UHGV virus genome: UHGV-0227640
Length of the DNA: 11,035 bases
Direction: 5' to 3' (one strand)
Origin: a virus
Shown here: in pieces, positions 217 to 10,307 of the stretch
Layout of the letters: each line of letters starts with the position of its first letter
Numbering within the stretch: position 1 is the first letter of the stretch
Program-made: the position numbers and the translations under genes
The notes under the pieces: generated by a model
Databases searched by the model: none
Seen by the model: the letters and a program-made list of their open reading frames with translations, nothing else
Told to the model about the DNA's origin: nothing

Positions 217-495
217 TTACCTCCAGATCCGTTGCTGGAAAGTGCGGGACGCACGTGGTGGGCGTTCGGAATAAGGCAGCCTGACAGAGATTATCCAGTG
301 CCGATAGTCGAGACTGAGAGCTTTCTTAACCTCGAACCCGCGCCTGCGGTAAGAATGAATCAGCCATTCGGCCTGTTCTTCAGTGCATGGGGGATGCTGG
401 TACCAATCAGATTTAAATGCGTGAGAGCGCCGCCCGTGCCTGCTGGCAAAGACGGCAGAATCATCAGAATTGTGTAATTTGGTATCGTGCGCCAT
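217..495 (-). CDS. Hypothetical 92-aa protein
   Basis: ORF-track ORF (MAHDTKLHNSDDSAVFASRHGRR...). Weak SD. Sits just downstream of the terminator of the HTH-peptidase operon. No motif recognised. Confidence 0.45.
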   Translation of the reverse strand: MAHDTKLHNSDDSAVFASRHGRRSHAFKSDWYQHPPCTEEQAEWLIHSYRRRGFEVKKALSLDYRHWIISVRLPYSERPPRASRTFQQRIWR

Positions 496-562
496 CGGTT
501 GTCTCTGCTGGCGCAGCAGGTGCCAGTTGTTCAGGCTGGCCTGTGGATTGTAAACCAGAATA

Positions 563-590
563 CGTAAAACAAAAACCCGCCGAGGCGGGT
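563..590 (-). terminator. Rho-independent terminator of the two-gene operon
   Basis: Minus-strand hairpin ACCCGC-cucg-GCGGGU (plus 575-590) followed by UUUUUGUUUU, 12 nt after the TAA stop at 602-604. Confidence 0.6.
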
Positions 591-601
591 ATGAATGAGA
601 A

Positions 602-1747
602 TTATTTTTGTTTTATGGTAAATGAAATAACATTGTCAGAATGAATCATATCTGATTCTTTAAATCGTGTAATTGCAGATAACTCATTTAAGGGAAGAGC
701 AAAGATATCAGTTAACTCAGTTACCTTTATGATTGAATGCTTATCAAGAAGTAAAAGTAACTTATTAAGTAACTCAGGCTCTTCTTTTGGGATTGCATCA
801 TCTAACGGCTCCCTACGATGGAATGGCGCTAATTGCTTAAATATATAGCTTTTCTGATTATCGCTGATTAACTTAAGGCTATGACTCCTCATGGCAATAC
901 TACCGATAGATGTAATCCAACGTAGTTTTAATCGTTCTAACGCTGATAAATTTGGACTATAAAATTCACGCCCGAAAGTGGTGGCTGGCATTAAAAAGCT
1001 GGAGGCAAAATAATCGGCCTGCAACTCCACCAGGTCGAATAATTCTTTATCATTCAGGTAGTCATCCTCCACTGCCCTATGCATAATTAAATGGCCAAGT
1101 TCATGAGCAAGACTAAATCGCATGCGAACAGCCGTCTTCGAGCTATCTAACATAATTAAAGGCCGCCCATTATGCCAGAACGAAAAGGCATCAACTTTCT
1201 CACCAGAAGGTAAATGAGAAACCACGATTCCTTTATTTTCAACAAGTCTAGTTAAATTGAGTATTGGACCATCACCTAACCCCCAAAAACGCCTTAATTG
1301 GGTGGACATATCCTCAATATCAGATAGAGACAGAACCTCAAAATCAATAATATCGAATTCAGGCAGAACCACATCTGGTAATTGAGCATATTTTAGACAT
1401 TCATCCAATATTAATGCCGCCCAACGCCCACGTGTTTTCCCTGTAACTCGAGCCTTTTTGGTCGCAGTTGAACGACTTCTAAAATGAATCGCCCCCTCCA
1501 GAGATGGAGAAGCACTGGAGGCTAAGAAAAATCGTTCTGGAAATCCTAACACCTTGGCTATTGCAGAAAGTGTATCAGCAGAGGGAGACTTCAACCCCTT
1601 CTCAAATGACGAAATAGCTTGTCTTGAAATATTGAGCACTCTGGCAAGTTCAGCCATCGTCAACCCTTTTGCCTCTCTTGCCTCCTCAAGGCGACGAGGA
1701 TTAAACGATTTATCAGTAAATGGTGTTTGTGCGATATTCATGCTCAT
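602..1747 (-). CDS. XRE-family HTH fused to ImmA/IrrE-type (COG2856 / M78-like) zinc metallopeptidase; candidate antitoxin/regulator
   Basis: 381-aa ORF. N-terminal XRE HTH (GLTMAELARVLNISRQAISSFEKGLKSP). HEXXH motif HELGHLIMH at about residue 232, as in the ImmA/IrrE family. Start ATG overlaps the upstream stop (ATGA at 1744-1747). Terminator follows. Confidence 0.85.
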   Translation of the reverse strand: MSMNIAQTPFTDKSFNPRRLEEAREAKGLTMAELARVLNISRQAISSFEKGLKSPSADTLSAIAKVLGFPERFFLASSASPSLEGAIHFRSRSTATKKARVTGKTRGRWAALILDECLKYAQLPDVVLPEFDIIDFEVLSLSDIEDMSTQLRRFWGLGDGPILNLTRLVENKGIVVSHLPSGEKVDAFSFWHNGRPLIMLDSSKTAVRMRFSLAHELGHLIMHRAVEDDYLNDKELFDLVELQADYFASSFLMPATTFGREFYSPNLSALERLKLRWITSIGSIAMRSHSLKLISDNQKSYIFKQLAPFHRREPLDDAIPKEEPELLNKLLLLLDKHSIIKVTELTDIFALPLNELSAITRFKESDMIHSDNVISFTIKQK

Positions 1748-2358
1748 GATTGCTGTGATTTAATTATTTGTTCGGTAAGAATCTTGATTTTATCTTCAAT
1801 CTCAGAATCCACATTTTCTGCTTCAACTTCTACCATCGTCATAATTGGTAAAGACTCAGTATAAAGAATCCCGTAATTATCCGAAGAAGGAACAGTTAAA
1901 TTCAGTTTGGACAAGTGCTGATTACTGCCATCATGTAACATATAAACATGTCCACCAGACGCTCTCCCATCCAGGGAGTCGGCATTTTCATCCCCAAAAT
2001 TCAATTCATAATTTTGATTAGCGTAAACAGCTCTATACAATGCCTGCTTAGGAAGTGGCGCATTACCCGATAAATGATGTGCCGTCATTTTCCAGTTGTT
2101 CGAGTGAATCGCAATGTGTTTACAATTTTTAGCAGCATTGCTACCGACTTCAAAATCCAGCCCCACACGCTTAGCCGCATTCTCAAGCAATGCATCGGCA
2201 TAAAACCAGCGCAAATATGACTGTGCTTGAGCCCAAAAAGAACCAAACTCTTTTGCCTTCATATGCGAATGAAGATAAGCCTGTGCTAACGCGATCGAAA
2301 GCTCTTTGCGGCACTCCTTGTCATATGCTTCTAACAACTGTTGAGATAAATTCTGCAT
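1744..2358 (-). CDS. Hypothetical 204-aa protein, first gene of the operon; candidate toxin/effector partner of the HTH-peptidase
   Basis: 204-aa ORF. AAGGA about 12 nt upstream of ATG at 2358. Stop overlaps start of downstream gene. No transmembrane segment or catalytic motif I recognise (His/Asn-rich centre HIAIHSNNW...HHLSGN...GGHVYMLHDGSNQH, acidic C-terminus). Visibly more A+T-rich than the phage core genes. Confidence 0.75.
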   Translation of the reverse strand: MQNLSQQLLEAYDKECRKELSIALAQAYLHSHMKAKEFGSFWAQAQSYLRWFYADALLENAAKRVGLDFEVGSNAAKNCKHIAIHSNNWKMTAHHLSGNAPLPKQALYRAVYANQNYELNFGDENADSLDGRASGGHVYMLHDGSNQHLSKLNLTVPSSDNYGILYTESLPIMTMVEVEAENVDSEIEDKIKILTEQIIKSQQS

Positions 2359-2383
2359 GACCGTAATATCCTTGTTGTTTTGG

Positions 2384-2423
2384 TGTCAACCATATTTCCA
2401 TTTAACATCGACTTTGTCAACCA
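2384..2423. promoter_or_regulatory. Putative promoter/operator of the two-gene operon
   Basis: Minus strand reads GGTTGACA (plus 2415-2423) and again GGTTGACA (plus 2384-2392): a TTGACA -35-like hexamer plus a second copy 31 bp downstream near the expected transcription start. The -10 is weak (AAATAT/GAAATA). Possible autoregulatory site for the XRE HTH. Confidence 0.25.
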
Positions 2424-2435
2424 GGTAGATGCTAG

Positions 2436-2456
2436 AAAAACCCGCCGAAGCGGGTT
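2436..2456 (-). terminator. Rho-independent terminator downstream of hok
   Basis: Minus-strand hairpin AACCCGC-uucg-GCGGGUU followed by UUUUU. Core 20 bp AAAAACCCGCCGARGCGGGT is nearly identical to the terminator at 571-590. Confidence 0.6.
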
Positions 2457-2524: not shown

Positions 2525-2680
2525 TTACTCCTCAGGTTCGTAAGCTGTGAAGACAGCGACCTCCGTCTGGCCGGTTCGGATTCGTACCTCGCAGAGGTCT
2601 TTCCTCGTTACCAGTGCCGTCACTATGACGGTTAAACAGATGACGATCAGGGCGATTAACATCGCCTTTTGCTGCTTCAT
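2525..2680 (-). CDS. hokD: Hok/Gef-family type I toxin (small membrane-depolarising peptide), HokD/RelF-like
   Basis: Not in ORF track (51 aa). Manual translation of minus strand 2680->2525: MKQQKAMLIALIVICLTVIVTALVTRKDLCEVRIRTGQTEVAVFTAYEPEE. AAGGAG 9 nt upstream. From memory this matches HokD (RelF) of E. coli K-12. No relB/relE upstream. Confidence 0.8.
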   Translation of the reverse strand: MKQQKAMLIALIVICLTVIVTALVTRKDLCEVRIRTGQTEVAVFTAYEPEE

Positions 2681-2938
2681 AGCCTGCTTCTCCTTGACCT
2701 TTCGGTCCGTAAGAGGCTAATCTCTATGTGTCGCATAGATATGGCCTCAGATTAATGTTAAGCGTCTTGCAGGACGCGTAATGTTAACTGGGGCTTTTCT
2801 CTATCTGCCTTTTGGTGTTCATGCCTGAGACAGATAGCCTCAAGCACCCGCAGTCATTCTACTTAACTAAGATTTCCCCGCAAACCGTTTTTGTCCGGCA
2901 CAGTAAATATCCAACTAAACCAATGGCGTTCGCTGTAT
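2677..2938 (-). promoter_or_regulatory. hok mRNA leader region; expected position of mok-like coupling ORF and antisense Sok-like RNA
   Basis: 258 bp with no long ORF. A 19-codon uORF (minus 2736->2677, MRHIEISLLRTERSRRSRL) ends in an ATGA overlap with the hok start. Plus-strand TTGACC (2694-2699), 18 bp, TAATCT (2718-2723) could drive an antisense RNA. Inverted repeat CTATCTG/CAGATAG at 2801-2837. Confidence 0.3.
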
Positions 2939-3118
2939 TTACCGCCAGTATTCAATGCACATGACCGCCATGAACACCCCTAAAAAAAGGGCATTTATAT
3001 ATCCAAATATTAATATCAAAACATCAACTTTTTCCATATACCTTGCTGTGAAGATGATGGGCATACATGATACGAACAACCAGAACGCAACAAACAAAAA
3101 CTGCAATGCGTTTTTCAT
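2939..3118 (-). CDS. Small hydrophobic protein (59 aa, two predicted transmembrane helices)
   Basis: MKNALQFLFVAFWLFVSCMPIIFTARYMEKVDVLILIFGYINALFLGVFMAVMCIEYWR. Strong SD (AGGAGG) 4 nt upstream of ATG at 3118. The ORF-track N-terminal extension to 3157 lacks an SD. Embedded in a strongly A+T-rich stretch (about 2950-3290). Confidence 0.55.
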   Translation of the reverse strand: MKNALQFLFVAFWLFVSCMPIIFTARYMEKVDVLILIFGYINALFLGVFMAVMCIEYWR

Positions 3119-3288
3119 TATTCCTCCTACAATCAATGTGCAATTACATTTAAACACACCTCAATTTGGCCGGACATATAAATATCTAAACCAGAAAAAA
3201 TCACTTACATAGCGTTACAAACTCTTTAGTCTAAATATTCATCGTAAAACATTCCCCATACTTATCAGCCCGTTCTGCGCCAGGTAGC

Positions 3289-3605
3289 TCATTGCCTTAT
3301 CTGGGAATCTGTAATCAGGTTTCCGGATGCTGGTGGATTTTCGCGTTTTAGTTGTTCATAAAAGTGCACAGCTTTAACCAGTTCTTCTGATGTAACCGGG
3401 ACTGGCGGGGCAGTGAATAAGGCCTGAATTTCATAGTTCGGCCTGTCGTTACAATCCTCTTTTTTCGGTACATATTTCCAGTCACCAGACCACTACTTCC
3501 CCTGAAAGTCCGTAACGCCTTTTTTTTCACGTAGCGATATCGCCATGCCACTGTTTTTGCTTGCCCCGCCGTTTCATGCCCTTCCTGATAATTAACCTCG
3601 CTCAT
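3289..3605 (-). pseudogene. Decayed Ea22-like paralog (frameshift plus in-frame stop)
   Basis: 5' end (GTG/ATG at 3605, MSEVNYQ...) is DNA-similar to the 5' ends of the Ea22-like genes at 6470 and 7092. After about 20 codons the listed frame turns implausible (basic, low complexity), while the +1 frame carries protein-like WSGDWKYVPKKEDCNDRPNYEIQALFTAPPVPVTSEELVKAVHFYEQLKRENPPASGNLITDSQIRQ ending at 3289, preceded by TAG. Homopolymer runs (T8 at 3520-3527, T6 at 3470-3475) are likely slippage sites. Confidence 0.4.
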
Positions 3606-8032: not shown

Positions 8033-8995
8033 TTACCCCCTGAAGCCCGGCGGAATTTCAGTGTCCGGTTCAGAAATGTGATTCACGCAACGCTGCGCAG
8101 GCGAACGCCCCAGGCGGATAACCAGTTCATCCCATTTTTCCCGGAGTTTTGCCGGACTCATGATGTTTTTTACCCAGAACGAATCCCGCTGGAGACGCCC
8201 AAACATTTCACAAATTTGTCTGTGAGTTCTGCCATCCAGCATCCGCATTGTGCGAACGTCATTGGCCCATGCTGTCCAGTTGGGTTCTTTCGGTCTAGTG
8301 ATCTCGCCATCATAGCTGGCCGCCTGCTCGTAAAGACTCACGATTCGTCCCCAGATCCACTGTGCGCACACCAAATCTTCCTGACTTCCCCACTGGCGTT
8401 TTTTCGCACTGAACACAACCGCGTCAGGGTGTCGGGTTAAAAAATCCTGTTCAGCCGTCTGCGGGTCCGGTTGCGAAGCGTCCGGACAAGAAGATCTTTT
8501 ATCTGACGGATCAGGTTTTAATACTGACGGATCGGGGTCAATCATCGGCCCCCTAATCGGCAGTTTTTTATCAACAGTTGATCCATCAAAATTTGACGGG
8601 TCAACCGTTGAGGGGTCAATATTTGACGGGTCAACTGTTAACGGGTCATTTTTTGCCGGGCTAATTTTTCTTTTCGGTTTATATGACTCACGCGCCGCCG
8701 CCGCAGCTGCTTCGAGTTTTTCCACATTAAGCCGATAGATATTGCTTACATTACGCCCACCGACCTTACGCTCTTCCTTCGTCAGCCAGCCCTCTTTCGC
8801 CAGTTCTGCAATAGCCGATTTCACTGTGGATTCACTTCTTGCACCGATCTGACGCCGGATAGTTTCAATGGCAGGCCATGACACGCCCTCGTCATTGCTG
8901 TAGTCTGCAAGACGGGCCATAACCGCCACCCTGGATAAGATCATGCCGGTGAAGGCGCACCCTTCCCAGACAAGACCATGAAGCTTGCTGCTCAT
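8033..8995 (-). CDS. Phage replication initiator (lambda O-like): N-terminal winged-helix DNA-binding domain, repetitive linker, C-terminal domain
   Basis: N-terminus ...MARLADYSNDEGVSWPAIETIRRQIGARSESTVKSAIAELAKEGWLTKEER. Linker with repeats DPLTVDPSNIDPSTVDPSNFDGSTVD encoded by the DNA iterons. ATG at 8995 with a G-rich SD preferred over GTG at 9010. Confidence 0.75.
   Translation of the reverse strand: MSSKLHGLVWEGCAFTGMILSRVAVMARLADYSNDEGVSWPAIETIRRQIGARSESTVKSAIAELAKEGWLTKEERKVGGRNVSNIYRLNVEKLEAAAAAARESYKPKRKISPAKNDPLTVDPSNIDPSTVDPSNFDGSTVDKKLPIRGPMIDPDPSVLKPDPSDKRSSCPDASQPDPQTAEQDFLTRHPDAVVFSAKKRQWGSQEDLVCAQWIWGRIVSLYEQAASYDGEITRPKEPNWTAWANDVRTMRMLDGRTHRQICEMFGRLQRDSFWVKNIMSPAKLREKWDELVIRLGRSPAQRCVNHISEPDTEIPPGFRG
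8500..8690. repeat. Iteron array plus A+T-rich segment: putative phage origin of replication inside the initiator gene
   Basis: About six copies of TGACGG(G/A)TCA and variants at 8504, 8525, 8594, 8609, 8624 and 8638, some spaced 15 bp apart, followed by the A+T-rich stretch 8649-8685 (TTTTTTGCCGGGCTAATTTTTCTTTTCGGTTTATATG). Confidence 0.55.
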
Positions 8996-9017
8996 AAAAC
9001 CCCCGAACACCGTGCTT

Positions 9018-9443
9018 TTAGTGCATCACCACAGCATTCCCTGCCGGGCCGCCGCGATTCATCTGGTCATACAAAACAACCGCTGACGCAACAAAATCAT
9101 CGACATCCTTCACCAGCCGATCCCTCCGTTCGACGATCTCACGGTAATATTCAGAACTGTGGCTGCGCATACGGGCCACCAGCAAAGGCGGCATCGCCTT
9201 TTCGATCGCCGGTAACAGAGCCTGCATTTTTTCAACAGCATCAGGGGTGTCTTTATCCAGCCAACGGAAAATTTTCTGGGTATTACGGGCCAGGGCTTCC
9301 GGATGGCTGTCGTCATACAGTTCCGGGAACGTCATTCCCAGCTCGAAATACGCTTTGGTAATTTTCGCAGCCGGCACTTTTTCGCCGTCCGGATGCGCCC
9401 AGACATTCATCGCCATGCGGATGTGTTCATGCTTGATTTTCAT
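9018..9443 (-). CDS. YdaT-like (CII-like) regulatory protein, 141 aa
   Basis: ORF-track ORF MKIKHEHIRMAMNVWAHPDGEK.... The position (between the Cro-like and replication genes) and the N-terminus resemble E. coli Rac YdaT as I recall it. Confidence 0.6.
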   Translation of the reverse strand: MKIKHEHIRMAMNVWAHPDGEKVPAAKITKAYFELGMTFPELYDDSHPEALARNTQKIFRWLDKDTPDAVEKMQALLPAIEKAMPPLLVARMRSHSSEYYREIVERRDRLVKDVDDFVASAVVLYDQMNRGGPAGNAVVMH

Positions 9444-9708
9444 GAATCAAGCTCCTAGAAAGTGGTTGTGTTAACGTTTTGGTATCTTCCAGCTCGGGCC
9501 AAATATTCATCCAATCAAAAGGCCTTAGTTGCTGACGTGTAACTTCACCATTACTGGCTCGCTCAATAAGGACACATAACGATGCCCCTAACACTTGACC
9601 TTTACTCAATGCCTTTCTTAGATAACCGATGCTGGTACCACACTCGCATGCAAACATACGCTGTTCATCTGACGAAAGAGAATTGAGAAATATTCTTAAT
9701 TCTTCCAT
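9427..9708 (-). CDS. Cro-like / YdaS-like HTH regulator, 93 aa
   Basis: ORF-track ORF. AAGGAG 6 nt upstream of ATG at 9708. HTH-like segment CECGTSIGYLRKALSKGQVLGASLCVLIERAS. Divergent from the repressor gene. Confidence 0.7.
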   Translation of the reverse strand: MEELRIFLNSLSSDEQRMFACECGTSIGYLRKALSKGQVLGASLCVLIERASNGEVTRQQLRPFDWMNIWPELEDTKTLTQPLSRSLIHENQA

Positions 9709-9808: not shown

Positions 9809-10228
9809 ATGGACAAATATGAATTTAGACGACAGCAACTCATCAAAATTCGTGATGAGAAATGCGATGGTAAAGCGGTTAACGTGGCCAGAAAGATCGG
9901 GCGCGAGCCTTCTTATGTATCAAGAATGTTGTACCCAGAGGGGAAAAAGGGAAAAAAACGGATCGCTGATGATATGGTGGAGATTATCGAAGAGTCCTTT
10001 GGGTTACCCCGGGGATGGATGGATGGTATCGTTTCATCATCAACGAACACAGCCTCCAGTTATGAAACAAGGGTTCTAACGCCACGACAACGTATTTTTT
10101 TAGATCTCTTAGACGAACTGCCAGAAAGTGAAGCGGATAAATTATTAAAAACTCTTGAAGAGAAAAAACAGTATTACAATATGATCTACGAAGAAATCCG
10201 TAAAAAGAAAGCACAAAACGCATCATAG
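9809..10228 (+). CDS. Prophage repressor-like HTH protein (positional equivalent of CI/DicA/RacR), 139 aa
   Basis: ORF-track ORF. HTH-like segment AVNVARKIGREPSYVSRMLYP. C-terminal ...LDELPESEADKLLKTL resembles the DicA C-terminal region as I recall it. No S24 peptidase domain. Confidence 0.7.
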   Translation: MDKYEFRRQQLIKIRDEKCDGKAVNVARKIGREPSYVSRMLYPEGKKGKKRIADDMVEIIEESFGLPRGWMDGIVSSSTNTASSYETRVLTPRQRIFLDLLDELPESEADKLLKTLEEKKQYYNMIYEEIRKKKAQNAS

Positions 10229-10270: not shown

Positions 10271-10307
10271 TACCCATGGGTATTTACTTTTTAAATACCT
10301 ATGGGTA
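10271..10307. promoter_or_regulatory. Second pair of operator-like sites upstream of the ydfA-like operon
   Basis: Perfect palindrome TACCCATGGGTA (10271-10282) and TACCTATGGGTA (10296-10307), 25 bp centre to centre, same consensus as the sites at 9738-9773. Confidence 0.4.

Follow-up and report, generated by a model that had tools for sequence, protein, structure and literature searches.

A putative RosmerTA defence cassette beside the hok terminator of a lambdoid prophage, and the proposed role of that terminator as a short-homology recombination site

Prophage defence systems turn over fast, and outside the P2/P4 hotspots their entry and exit have mostly been described as recombination through conserved flanks or as illegitimate recombination. 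Here we describe a two-gene segment (positions 591–2435) of an 11,035-nucleotide viral sequence, UHGV virus genome UHGV-0227640 (the whole stretch is referred to below as the window), which is bracketed by two near-identical terminator hairpins. We consider it probable that this segment is a RosmerTA toxin–antitoxin (TA) cassette for anti-phage defence, carried as a moron, and that the terminator of the neighbouring hok gene serves as a short-homology recombination site. RosmerTA, morons and prophage defence hotspots are already known, as are both genes of the segment as morons of phage Tritos.

Phage morons, in the Juhala/Hendrix definition based on HK97 and HK022, are autonomous promoter–gene–terminator units lying between genes that are adjacent in relatives (PMC3594210). 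The segment shares with them a deviant base composition, published expression from a near-identical prophage and a presumed host benefit; it is present or absent at one position and has, by prediction, its own terminator. Unlike a classical moron, it sits at a specific resident terminator which is duplicated around the cargo, and many cargos share the same insertion point. RosmerTA, in turn, is an experimentally demonstrated defence and TA family that pairs a Zn-peptidase antitoxin with a variable toxin, and for other members of the family a ΔrmrA version could not be transformed (bioRxiv 10.1101/2022.05.11.491447; PMC10440598). The operon in the window has the same layout, with the toxin gene placed upstream of the gene for a helix-turn-helix (HTH) and ImmA/IrrE Zn-peptidase antitoxin, but differs from known RosmerTA in that its toxin belongs to a very small family and matches RmrT profiles weakly.

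Three further systems invite comparison. In virulent T4-like phages, PeSL (promoter early stem-loop) units, each combining a terminator stem-loop with a promoter sequence, flank variable genes in hyperplastic regions, with two units at an occupied site and one, chimeric, at an empty site; they measure ~100 bp, occur in ~50 copies per genome, and were proposed to act by homologous recombination between units, possibly via mini-circles (Arbiol et al. 2010, PMC2839356). The locus described here shows the same two-versus-one pattern, but its unit is ~20–45 bp long, is based on the hok terminator, occurs once or twice per prophage at one temperate lambdoid hotspot (twice in the 11-kb window) rather than in many dispersed copies, and surrounds defence and TA cargo. 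Like the P2/P4 defence hotspots, the locus carries interchangeable defence systems at a fixed position between conserved phage genes (PMC9122126; PMC13586616). It differs from them in phage family and position, and PMC13586616 credits the conserved flanking genes for exchange, with no mention of a terminator, stem-loop, direct repeat or short homology. Finally, insertions recur immediately 3' of hok, here as in other hok/sok loci that carry them. Pedersen and Gerdes reportedly described, in 1999, chromosomal hok loci with insertion sequence (IS) elements just downstream of the gene. Unlike those loci, the sites considered here hold cassettes that have a promoter and a terminator but encode no transposase, and duplication preserves the hok terminator.

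The rmrTA cassette and the hairpins around it

Between the two hairpins lie two minus-strand open reading frames (ORFs), overlapping at ATGA, and a 77-bp leader with a promoter-like site. The distal gene, rmrA (602–1747, minus strand), encodes a 381-aa antitoxin in which an XRE-type HTH at the N-terminus precedes an ImmA/IrrE (M78) Zn-peptidase domain bearing the motif HELGH; its product matched HTH_3 (2.4e-16) and Peptidase_M78 (9.7e-19) in Pfam and the PADLOC RmrA profile PDLC03947 over its full length (5.5e-102, residues 11–380). The proximal gene, rmrT (1744–2358, minus strand), has its stop codon overlapping the rmrA start and encodes a putative toxin of 204 aa, for which Pfam returned no match and PADLOC a weak one (RmrT profile PDLC03933, 7.5e-10). 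Because of these PADLOC matches, together with the two Pfam domains of RmrA, we assign rmrT and rmrA jointly to RosmerTA by homology, with defence by this variant being putative. RmrT forms a very small family, which at 90% identity falls into 10 clusters from E. coli, Salmonella, Yersinia and several metagenomes; rmrT was always upstream of rmrA across the 10 homologue clusters, and the pair was kept in every homologue context.

The initial annotation described this DNA as distinctly A+T-rich relative to the phage core to its right, and the measured composition agrees. G+C content between the hairpins is 39.9%, versus 54.6% in the left flank (1–570) and 47.1% in all DNA to the right; this is the lowest-G+C 1845-bp window in the 11 kb, and windows of that size lying wholly to its right are all at or above 42.0%. 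The G+C content at third codon positions is 0.33 in rmrA and 0.37 in rmrT, compared with 0.42–0.67 in most neighbouring genes. What had been called the phage core is indeed more G+C-rich; it is, however, the early-right replication and nin region, itself mosaic and with other A+T-rich patches (e.g. 35–38% G+C at 2851–3300).

Upstream of rmrT we predict a promoter with a candidate operator (2384–2423, minus strand), consisting of a −35 box TTGACA (2415–2420), a 17-nt spacer ending in TG and a −10 box AAATAT (2392–2397). Two copies of the motif TGGTTGACA, spaced by 31 bp (2415–2423 and 2384–2392), coincide in part with the −35 box and with the predicted rmrT transcription start. A consensus promoter scan of the window did not list this promoter, and the site was judged from an alignment of the cassette family in six contexts instead: TGGTTGACAAA is invariant, followed by AAATG.AAA and then TGGTTGACA, while nothing is conserved upstream. 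Since conservation across the six contexts stops there, the cassette proper begins at 2423; four of the six contexts have the invariant promoter-like site without hok. Both TGGTTGACA copies are likewise invariant in the six contexts and together make up a candidate RmrA operator, their role, like that of the promoter, being predicted from the alignment. Repeats resembling TGGTTGACAAA also precede two unrelated RosmerTA types (loci L181 and L144).

The hairpins themselves, AAAAACCCGCCGAGGCGGGT at 571–590 and AAAAACCCGCCGAAGCGGGT at 2436–2455, differ by one loop base and, as the initial annotation had it, flank the two-gene operon together with its (predicted) promoter. A search of the window for the 20-mer that tolerated up to 3 mismatches returned no third match, and two matches did not arise in any of 200 shuffles that preserved dinucleotide content. 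The minus-strand sequence of each is ACCCGC-yTCG-GCGGGT and then a T-run: six G+C base pairs form the stem, a 4-nt UUCG-type loop closes it, and with the T-run this is the classic form of an intrinsic terminator. Predicted folding energies are −12.1 kcal/mol for the left hairpin (z = −3.3) and −13.9 for the right one (minimum free energy; −11.8 for its stem-loop alone as centroid). A consensus terminator scan listed the left hairpin and missed the right one, though by eye it has the same pattern.

The left hairpin (ACCCGC-CTCG-GCGGGT, 575–590, minus strand), with its U-tract at 563–574, begins 11 nt past the rmrA stop and is the predicted terminator of the rmrTA operon. The right hairpin (ACCCGC-TTCG-GCGGGT, 2440–2455) begins 69–70 nt past the stop codon of hokD (2525–2680, minus strand; a 51-aa type I toxin, Pfam HOK_GEF 1.2e-23, annotated as hokD by RefSeq in matching genomes), in empty and occupied loci alike. 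Rfam also matched the sok antisense RNA and hok mRNA leader (2678–2849, minus strand; RF01794, 106.7 bits, E = 5.5e-24), and from the 5' end of this match to the hairpin is a distance of ~410 nt, which fits a full-length hok mRNA as in the R1 hok/sok system. Because of this distance, and because its spacing from the hok stop is constant with or without cargo, we identify the right hairpin as the terminator at the 3' end of the hokD mRNA and as no part of the cassette.

The repeat is larger than the 20-mer. It is an imperfect unit of ~42 bp made up of a hairpin, a T-run, a spacer and the −35-like motif TGGTTKACAA, with copy 1 on the hok side (2414–2455, minus strand; ending in TGGTTGACAA) and copy 2 on the side of a conserved 92-aa gene (548–590, minus strand; ending in TGGTTTACAA and running straight into the flank seen at empty sites). 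The hok-side copy alone continues into the full predicted promoter. At an empty site (L002) the resident unit reads hairpin, T-run, CCTAGCATTC and TGGTTTACAA, and both units of the window align to the whole of it.

The exact 19-mer ACCCGCTTCGGCGGGTTTT is a generic terminator with more than 120 matches across unrelated bacteria, including Pseudomonas, Burkholderiales, Serratia and Saccharibacteria; among the matches listed, 1 of 120 lies beside hok. Identity of the hairpins alone is thus no proof of common origin, and it is the comparative data below that supply it. For the same reason we rejected the idea of a hairpin peculiar to hok or this hotspot. In two of the distant genomes the 19-mer is itself present twice in direct orientation, with extended similarity of the flanks: in Stutzerimonas chloritidismutans (L325) the copies (25–43 and 1017–1035) lie around a ~1-kb segment with a cold-shock-like gene on the opposite strand, and in Serratia (L267, 3003–3172) the hairpin is within a tandem duplication beside what appears to be a tRNA gene's 3' end. 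Segments lying between terminators may occur outside lambdoid phages as well.

Empty and occupied sites at the hok terminator

Two samples of IMG/VR loci were examined, one of 80 loci (72 classifiable) anchored on the 92-aa gene (217–495, minus strand), and one of 117 loci anchored on the hok terminator. In the first, ~46 of the 72 classifiable loci were empty, with 166–167 bp between hokD and the 92-aa gene and a single hairpin; in the second, 50 of 117 were empty with one hairpin. Emptiness was the commonest single state in both samples.

Occupied sites present a different picture, with at least six unrelated cargos, the window's cassette included, each found between two copies of the hairpin (ACCCGCTTCGGCGGGT). 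The other cargos, at least five in number as far as the same hairpin flanking other genes is concerned, comprise two further unrelated RosmerTA systems (L181, RmrT 5.5e-93 and RmrA 2e-155; L144, RmrT 4.6e-25 and RmrA 6e-105), a pair of genes for HTH and M78-peptidase proteins (L004/L159), a small protein with a Fic/Doc partner (L165/L168/L208; PF02661, 1.6e-11), and a 665-bp cargo with a lipoprotein-like ORF (L052 and others), whose hok-side hairpin copy is truncated to ACCCGCTTCGGCG followed by a T-run. The pattern of one copy when empty and two when occupied was seen in three resident flanks, namely the TGGTTTACAA, K-12 rem and Salmonella dinI alleles. The Fic/Doc cargo, together with its distal hairpin, was found beside three different downstream flanks. 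The L144 cargo lies upstream of a K-12-type rem flank, so that the K-12 Qin prophage represents the empty site for it. In one locus with the lipoprotein-like cargo (L058, IMG/VR), an insertion ending in CTGATGAATCCCCTAATGATTTT, presumably IS10-like, splits the hok terminator hairpin after ACCC.

L181 and the window have both flanks in common and carry different RosmerTA systems; their homology ends after the first hairpin plus four T and restarts at the first base of the second hairpin. In every two-copy case, the distal cargo junction is at most 1 base from the 5' edge of the hairpin. These breakpoint positions strongly suggest recombination at the terminator. An empty site with the window's own right-flank allele was sought and not found, the exact 34-mer occurring only in 12 cassette-bearing contigs; a variant one T longer flanks the different RosmerTA in L181.

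The cassette itself is rare. It was present in 41 of 5426 complete E. coli genomes, at an identity of at least 99.5% in each, and all 41 carriers have it in one context, a single place covering at least 80% of a 3.3-kb query of flanks plus cassette. A situation in which related prophages always carried the operon with varying flanks would have spoken against acquisition as a unit, and the opposite was seen. Positions 595–2435 are identical at 99.9% to phage Tritos of E. coli LF82, a strain associated with Crohn's disease. Transcriptomes of the Tritos lysogen list both genes as morons, with expression 14-fold (LF82_280) and 30-fold (LF82_281) over the prophage background, next to 3792-fold for hok (PMC9928086, Table 1). 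The cassette is also carried by other clinical and avian E. coli. When RmrA was searched against one genome from each species, no confirmed relative emerged, and hence no donor taxon. Taken together, presence or absence at one site, the other cargos between the same hairpins, the low G+C content and the published expression in the lysogen support the proposal of the initial annotation that the segment was acquired as a unit, in the manner of a moron.

The abundance of empty sites could also be read the other way round, as deletion scars between two units of an ancestral cassette that the window has retained. The empty site does keep TGGTTTACAA, which has 10 of the 11 bases of the invariant TGGTTGACAAA at a matching distance past the terminator and could be a promoter remnant. 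Yet the cassette is found in so few genomes, varies so little there, and lies ~7–15 G+C points below its flanks, which themselves differ by ~7% between lineages, that a recent single gain fits better; the many different cargos at the site also speak against ancestral presence. Ancestral presence followed by loss is possible for the site in general and unlikely for this cassette, and as an explanation of the window we find it quite improbable.

The cassette family at other sites and a proposed route of acquisition

A related cassette is found in two IMG/VR contigs (L097 and L098, 87% DNA identity) and in Salmonella enterica (L378, RmrT 92% identical), in the nin region of another lambdoid prophage, with a DUF551-like or dNTP-pyrophosphohydrolase gene on one side and dinI on the other. 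Its homology to the window extends from the rmrA stop (602) to 2 nt past the hok-side hairpin (2457). At this site too the cassette lies between two hairpins, here copies of AACCCGCTGCGGCGGGTTTTT with a TGCG loop, identical to each other in L097 and with one point change in L098 and L378/L379, while of 30 contigs that share the left flank, 29 have an empty site at which a single hairpin leads directly into the dinI flank. The rule of one when empty and two when occupied thus holds, on comparison of these contigs, at a second independent terminator, and the loop matches that of the local resident terminator.

Relatives of the cassette have a native terminator ~10 nt past the rmrA stop, ACCCGCTTTATGCGGGT in L097 and ACCCGCTCTCTGCGGGT in L380, with the stem of the hok terminator and other loops; L381 and L383 have unrelated hairpins as cassette terminator. 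Judged by its position, the window's left hairpin is the equivalent of this native terminator, with a loop one base off that of the resident hok hairpin. Past the cassette terminator, L097 (5147–5334) and L380 (5780–5960) both have a 190-bp remnant that by eye resembles the C-terminus of a C5 DNA methyltransferase, which suggests that in this lineage the cassette replaced most of a methyltransferase moron.

These loop sequences bear on another account of the two hairpins, namely that they are independently evolved forms of a generic, optimal terminator, and that the cassette came with its own and landed beside that of hok by illegitimate recombination or by selection for a harmless intergenic site, the hairpin playing no part. 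The wide taxonomic spread of the 19-mer is what such convergence would produce, as are the few ACCCGC...GCGGGT hairpins with different loops elsewhere in these phages, and the fact that the cassette's relatives already own a terminator with the same stem. However, the loops track the resident terminator, being TGCG on both sides in Salmonella and TTCG in E. coli; six unrelated cargos at the hok site have distal hairpins identical at 16 of 16 positions, whereas at other locations members of the cassette family differ in the loop or in the whole hairpin. Homology breaks exactly at the hairpin edges, and the repeat runs on past the hairpin, taking in T-run, spacer and TGGTTKACAA. We regard convergence alone as unlikely.

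At resident sites without an ACCCGC-type terminator (L380–L385), no flanking repeat of 11 nt or more was found around the cassette. This result also concerns the possibility of a dedicated element that targets hairpins and duplicates its target, along the lines of attC integrons, IS200/IS605-type transposases or class C group II introns. Such an element would be expected to insert at a hairpin and to be flanked by direct repeats where the empty site has one copy, as is the case here, and the IS10-like insertion within the hairpin of L058 indicates that the site tolerates insertions. Against it, the cargo consists of rmrT and rmrA only, with no gene for a transposase, integrase or reverse transcriptase; no terminal inverted repeats were seen; the repeat ranges from ~21 to 42 bp depending on the cargo, at odds with a target-site duplication of fixed length; and in four other contexts no repeat flanks the cassette. 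The cargo thus lacks the marks of a transposon or IS element, and the last two observations led us to reject both a fixed target-site duplication and a recombination site borne by the cassette. A dedicated element seems to us highly improbable.

Members of the same RosmerTA family are also found at other well-known accessory locations. In a Yersinia prophage (L381/L382) the operon lies between the cI repressor and N antiterminator genes, the interval taken up by rexAB in lambda. Elsewhere it lies beside a primase in an island (L383), or in a defence island with genes for Shedu-like (SduA_C) and Peptidase_U49 domains (L385).

We propose that the hok terminator, its T-run and TGGTTKACAA act as a short-homology recombination site. 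A cassette would bring to it a terminator with the same ACCCGC/GCGGGT stem, as well as a −35/operator motif that matches the TGGTTTACAA following the resident terminator, and a crossover within this ~20–45-bp unit would insert the cargo with one copy of the unit on each side. The order of elements, terminator then TGGTTTACAA in the resident DNA versus motif then terminator in the cassette, gives the product the topology expected if a circularised cassette had inserted in Campbell fashion or if two phage genomes had exchanged unequally, and both events would duplicate the unit. The reverse crossover would regenerate the empty site, and the same process could swap cargos between phages. Arbiol et al. 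(2010) reasoned along these lines for the PeSL units of T4-type phages. The original suggestion that recombination took place between terminator-like repeats is supported by the placement of breakpoints at hairpin edges, with the mechanism remaining a proposal; a correction to that picture is that the right hairpin belongs to hok.

Once in a lysogen, the operon would be transcribed independently, with RmrA neutralising RmrT and probably repressing its own promoter through the two TGGTTGACA repeats. By analogy with the RosmerTA family, an infecting phage would lead to release of the toxin and abortion of the infection. The two hairpins would keep three transcription units apart, with the cassette insulated from the very strongly expressed hok mRNA on one side and from the Q-operon genes of the phage, downstream, on the other.

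A number of observations weigh against this interpretation. The two spacers of the window are considerably diverged, pointing to an old event or to two different alleles, and repeat length varies by cargo (~21, 22, 27, 28 and up to ~42 bp, with indels). As the 19-mer recurs convergently across bacteria, part of the similarity between hairpins could reflect functional convergence. Three cargo types depart from the two-copy pattern: a single hairpin accompanies K-12 rem and likewise a 290-bp A+T-rich segment, whereas a 1.2-kb cargo has taken the place of the hairpin altogether, which means that other routes into the site exist. The cassette promoter is a prediction, and transcription of the cassette in LF82 may in part be read-through from hok, given the 3792-fold expression of the latter. 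The profile match of RmrT is weak, and its AlphaFold2 model, built from a 9-sequence alignment, was unusable (mean predicted local distance difference test score, 38.6). Finally, the recombination event, its direction (gain versus loss) and the enzymes involved are deduced from comparison of sequences.

A broader and more tentative proposal, which we would put forward as a possibility and which may well prove wrong, is that ACCCGC-type terminators of the nin region, that of hok included, form with their T-run and −35-like motif a portable, PeSL-like exchange site. Through it, defence and TA operons could be captured, excised (perhaps as circles) and swapped across phages of E. coli and Salmonella, most plausibly by phage recombinases. 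The recombinases of lambdoid phages, according to De Paepe et al. in 2014, are said to tolerate short and diverged homology.

Prophage setting and implications

The site of the cassette belongs to the early-right (nin) part of a lambdoid prophage resembling Tritos and Qin. A repressor (cI-like) gene on the plus strand (9809–10228) is followed, along the leftward minus-strand arm, by cro-like (9427–9708), cII-like (9018–9443) and O-like (8033–9010) genes, then by a Ren-like gene and a DNA methyltransferase gene, small genes of the nin type, hokD/sok, the cassette and the 92-aa gene. In matching genomes ydfU (DUF968), rusA and the Q-type antiterminator gene ydfT come next. The 92-aa gene, which serves as the downstream anchor of the hotspot and precedes ydfU according to RefSeq annotations, has 589 relatives in IMG/VR, and its product had no match in Pfam. 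Salmonella phages have a 69-aa homologue at the equivalent position, before ydfU/DUF968 (L097, 6718–6927).

A second mosaic boundary lies upstream of hok/sok, where homology to strain GABEEC10 stops at 2869; the ~500 bp beyond it have 35–38% G+C and contain a hydrophobic 72-aa ORF (2939–3157) without Pfam match, and GABEEC10 has a QueH gene on the corresponding side of hokD. Just downstream of the repressor-like gene, a near-perfect palindrome of 16 pairs (10271–10307; TACCCATGGGTATTTA...TAAATACCTATGGGTA, followed by T-rich DNA) may be a terminator or a protein-binding site.

Our search of the open-access literature turned up no account of the hok terminator as a place where lambdoid prophages repeatedly carry cargo, of the rule of one versus two terminators, or of a link to PeSL. 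The locus provides a concrete site of exchange, a terminator-centred unit of ~20–45 bp that is single when the site is empty and double around at least six cargos. If the terminator is indeed the crossover site, this would account for the frequent location of morons between a terminator and a promoter, and would supply a search rule for new cargo, to be sought between duplicated terminators downstream of hok. The PeSL idea, put forward for virulent T4-like phages, would then cover temperate lambdoid ones as well. On the broader and more tentative proposal, widespread UUCG-tetraloop terminators would double as recombination sites, and lambdoid prophages would have a general, sequence-defined route for building their defence repertoire.

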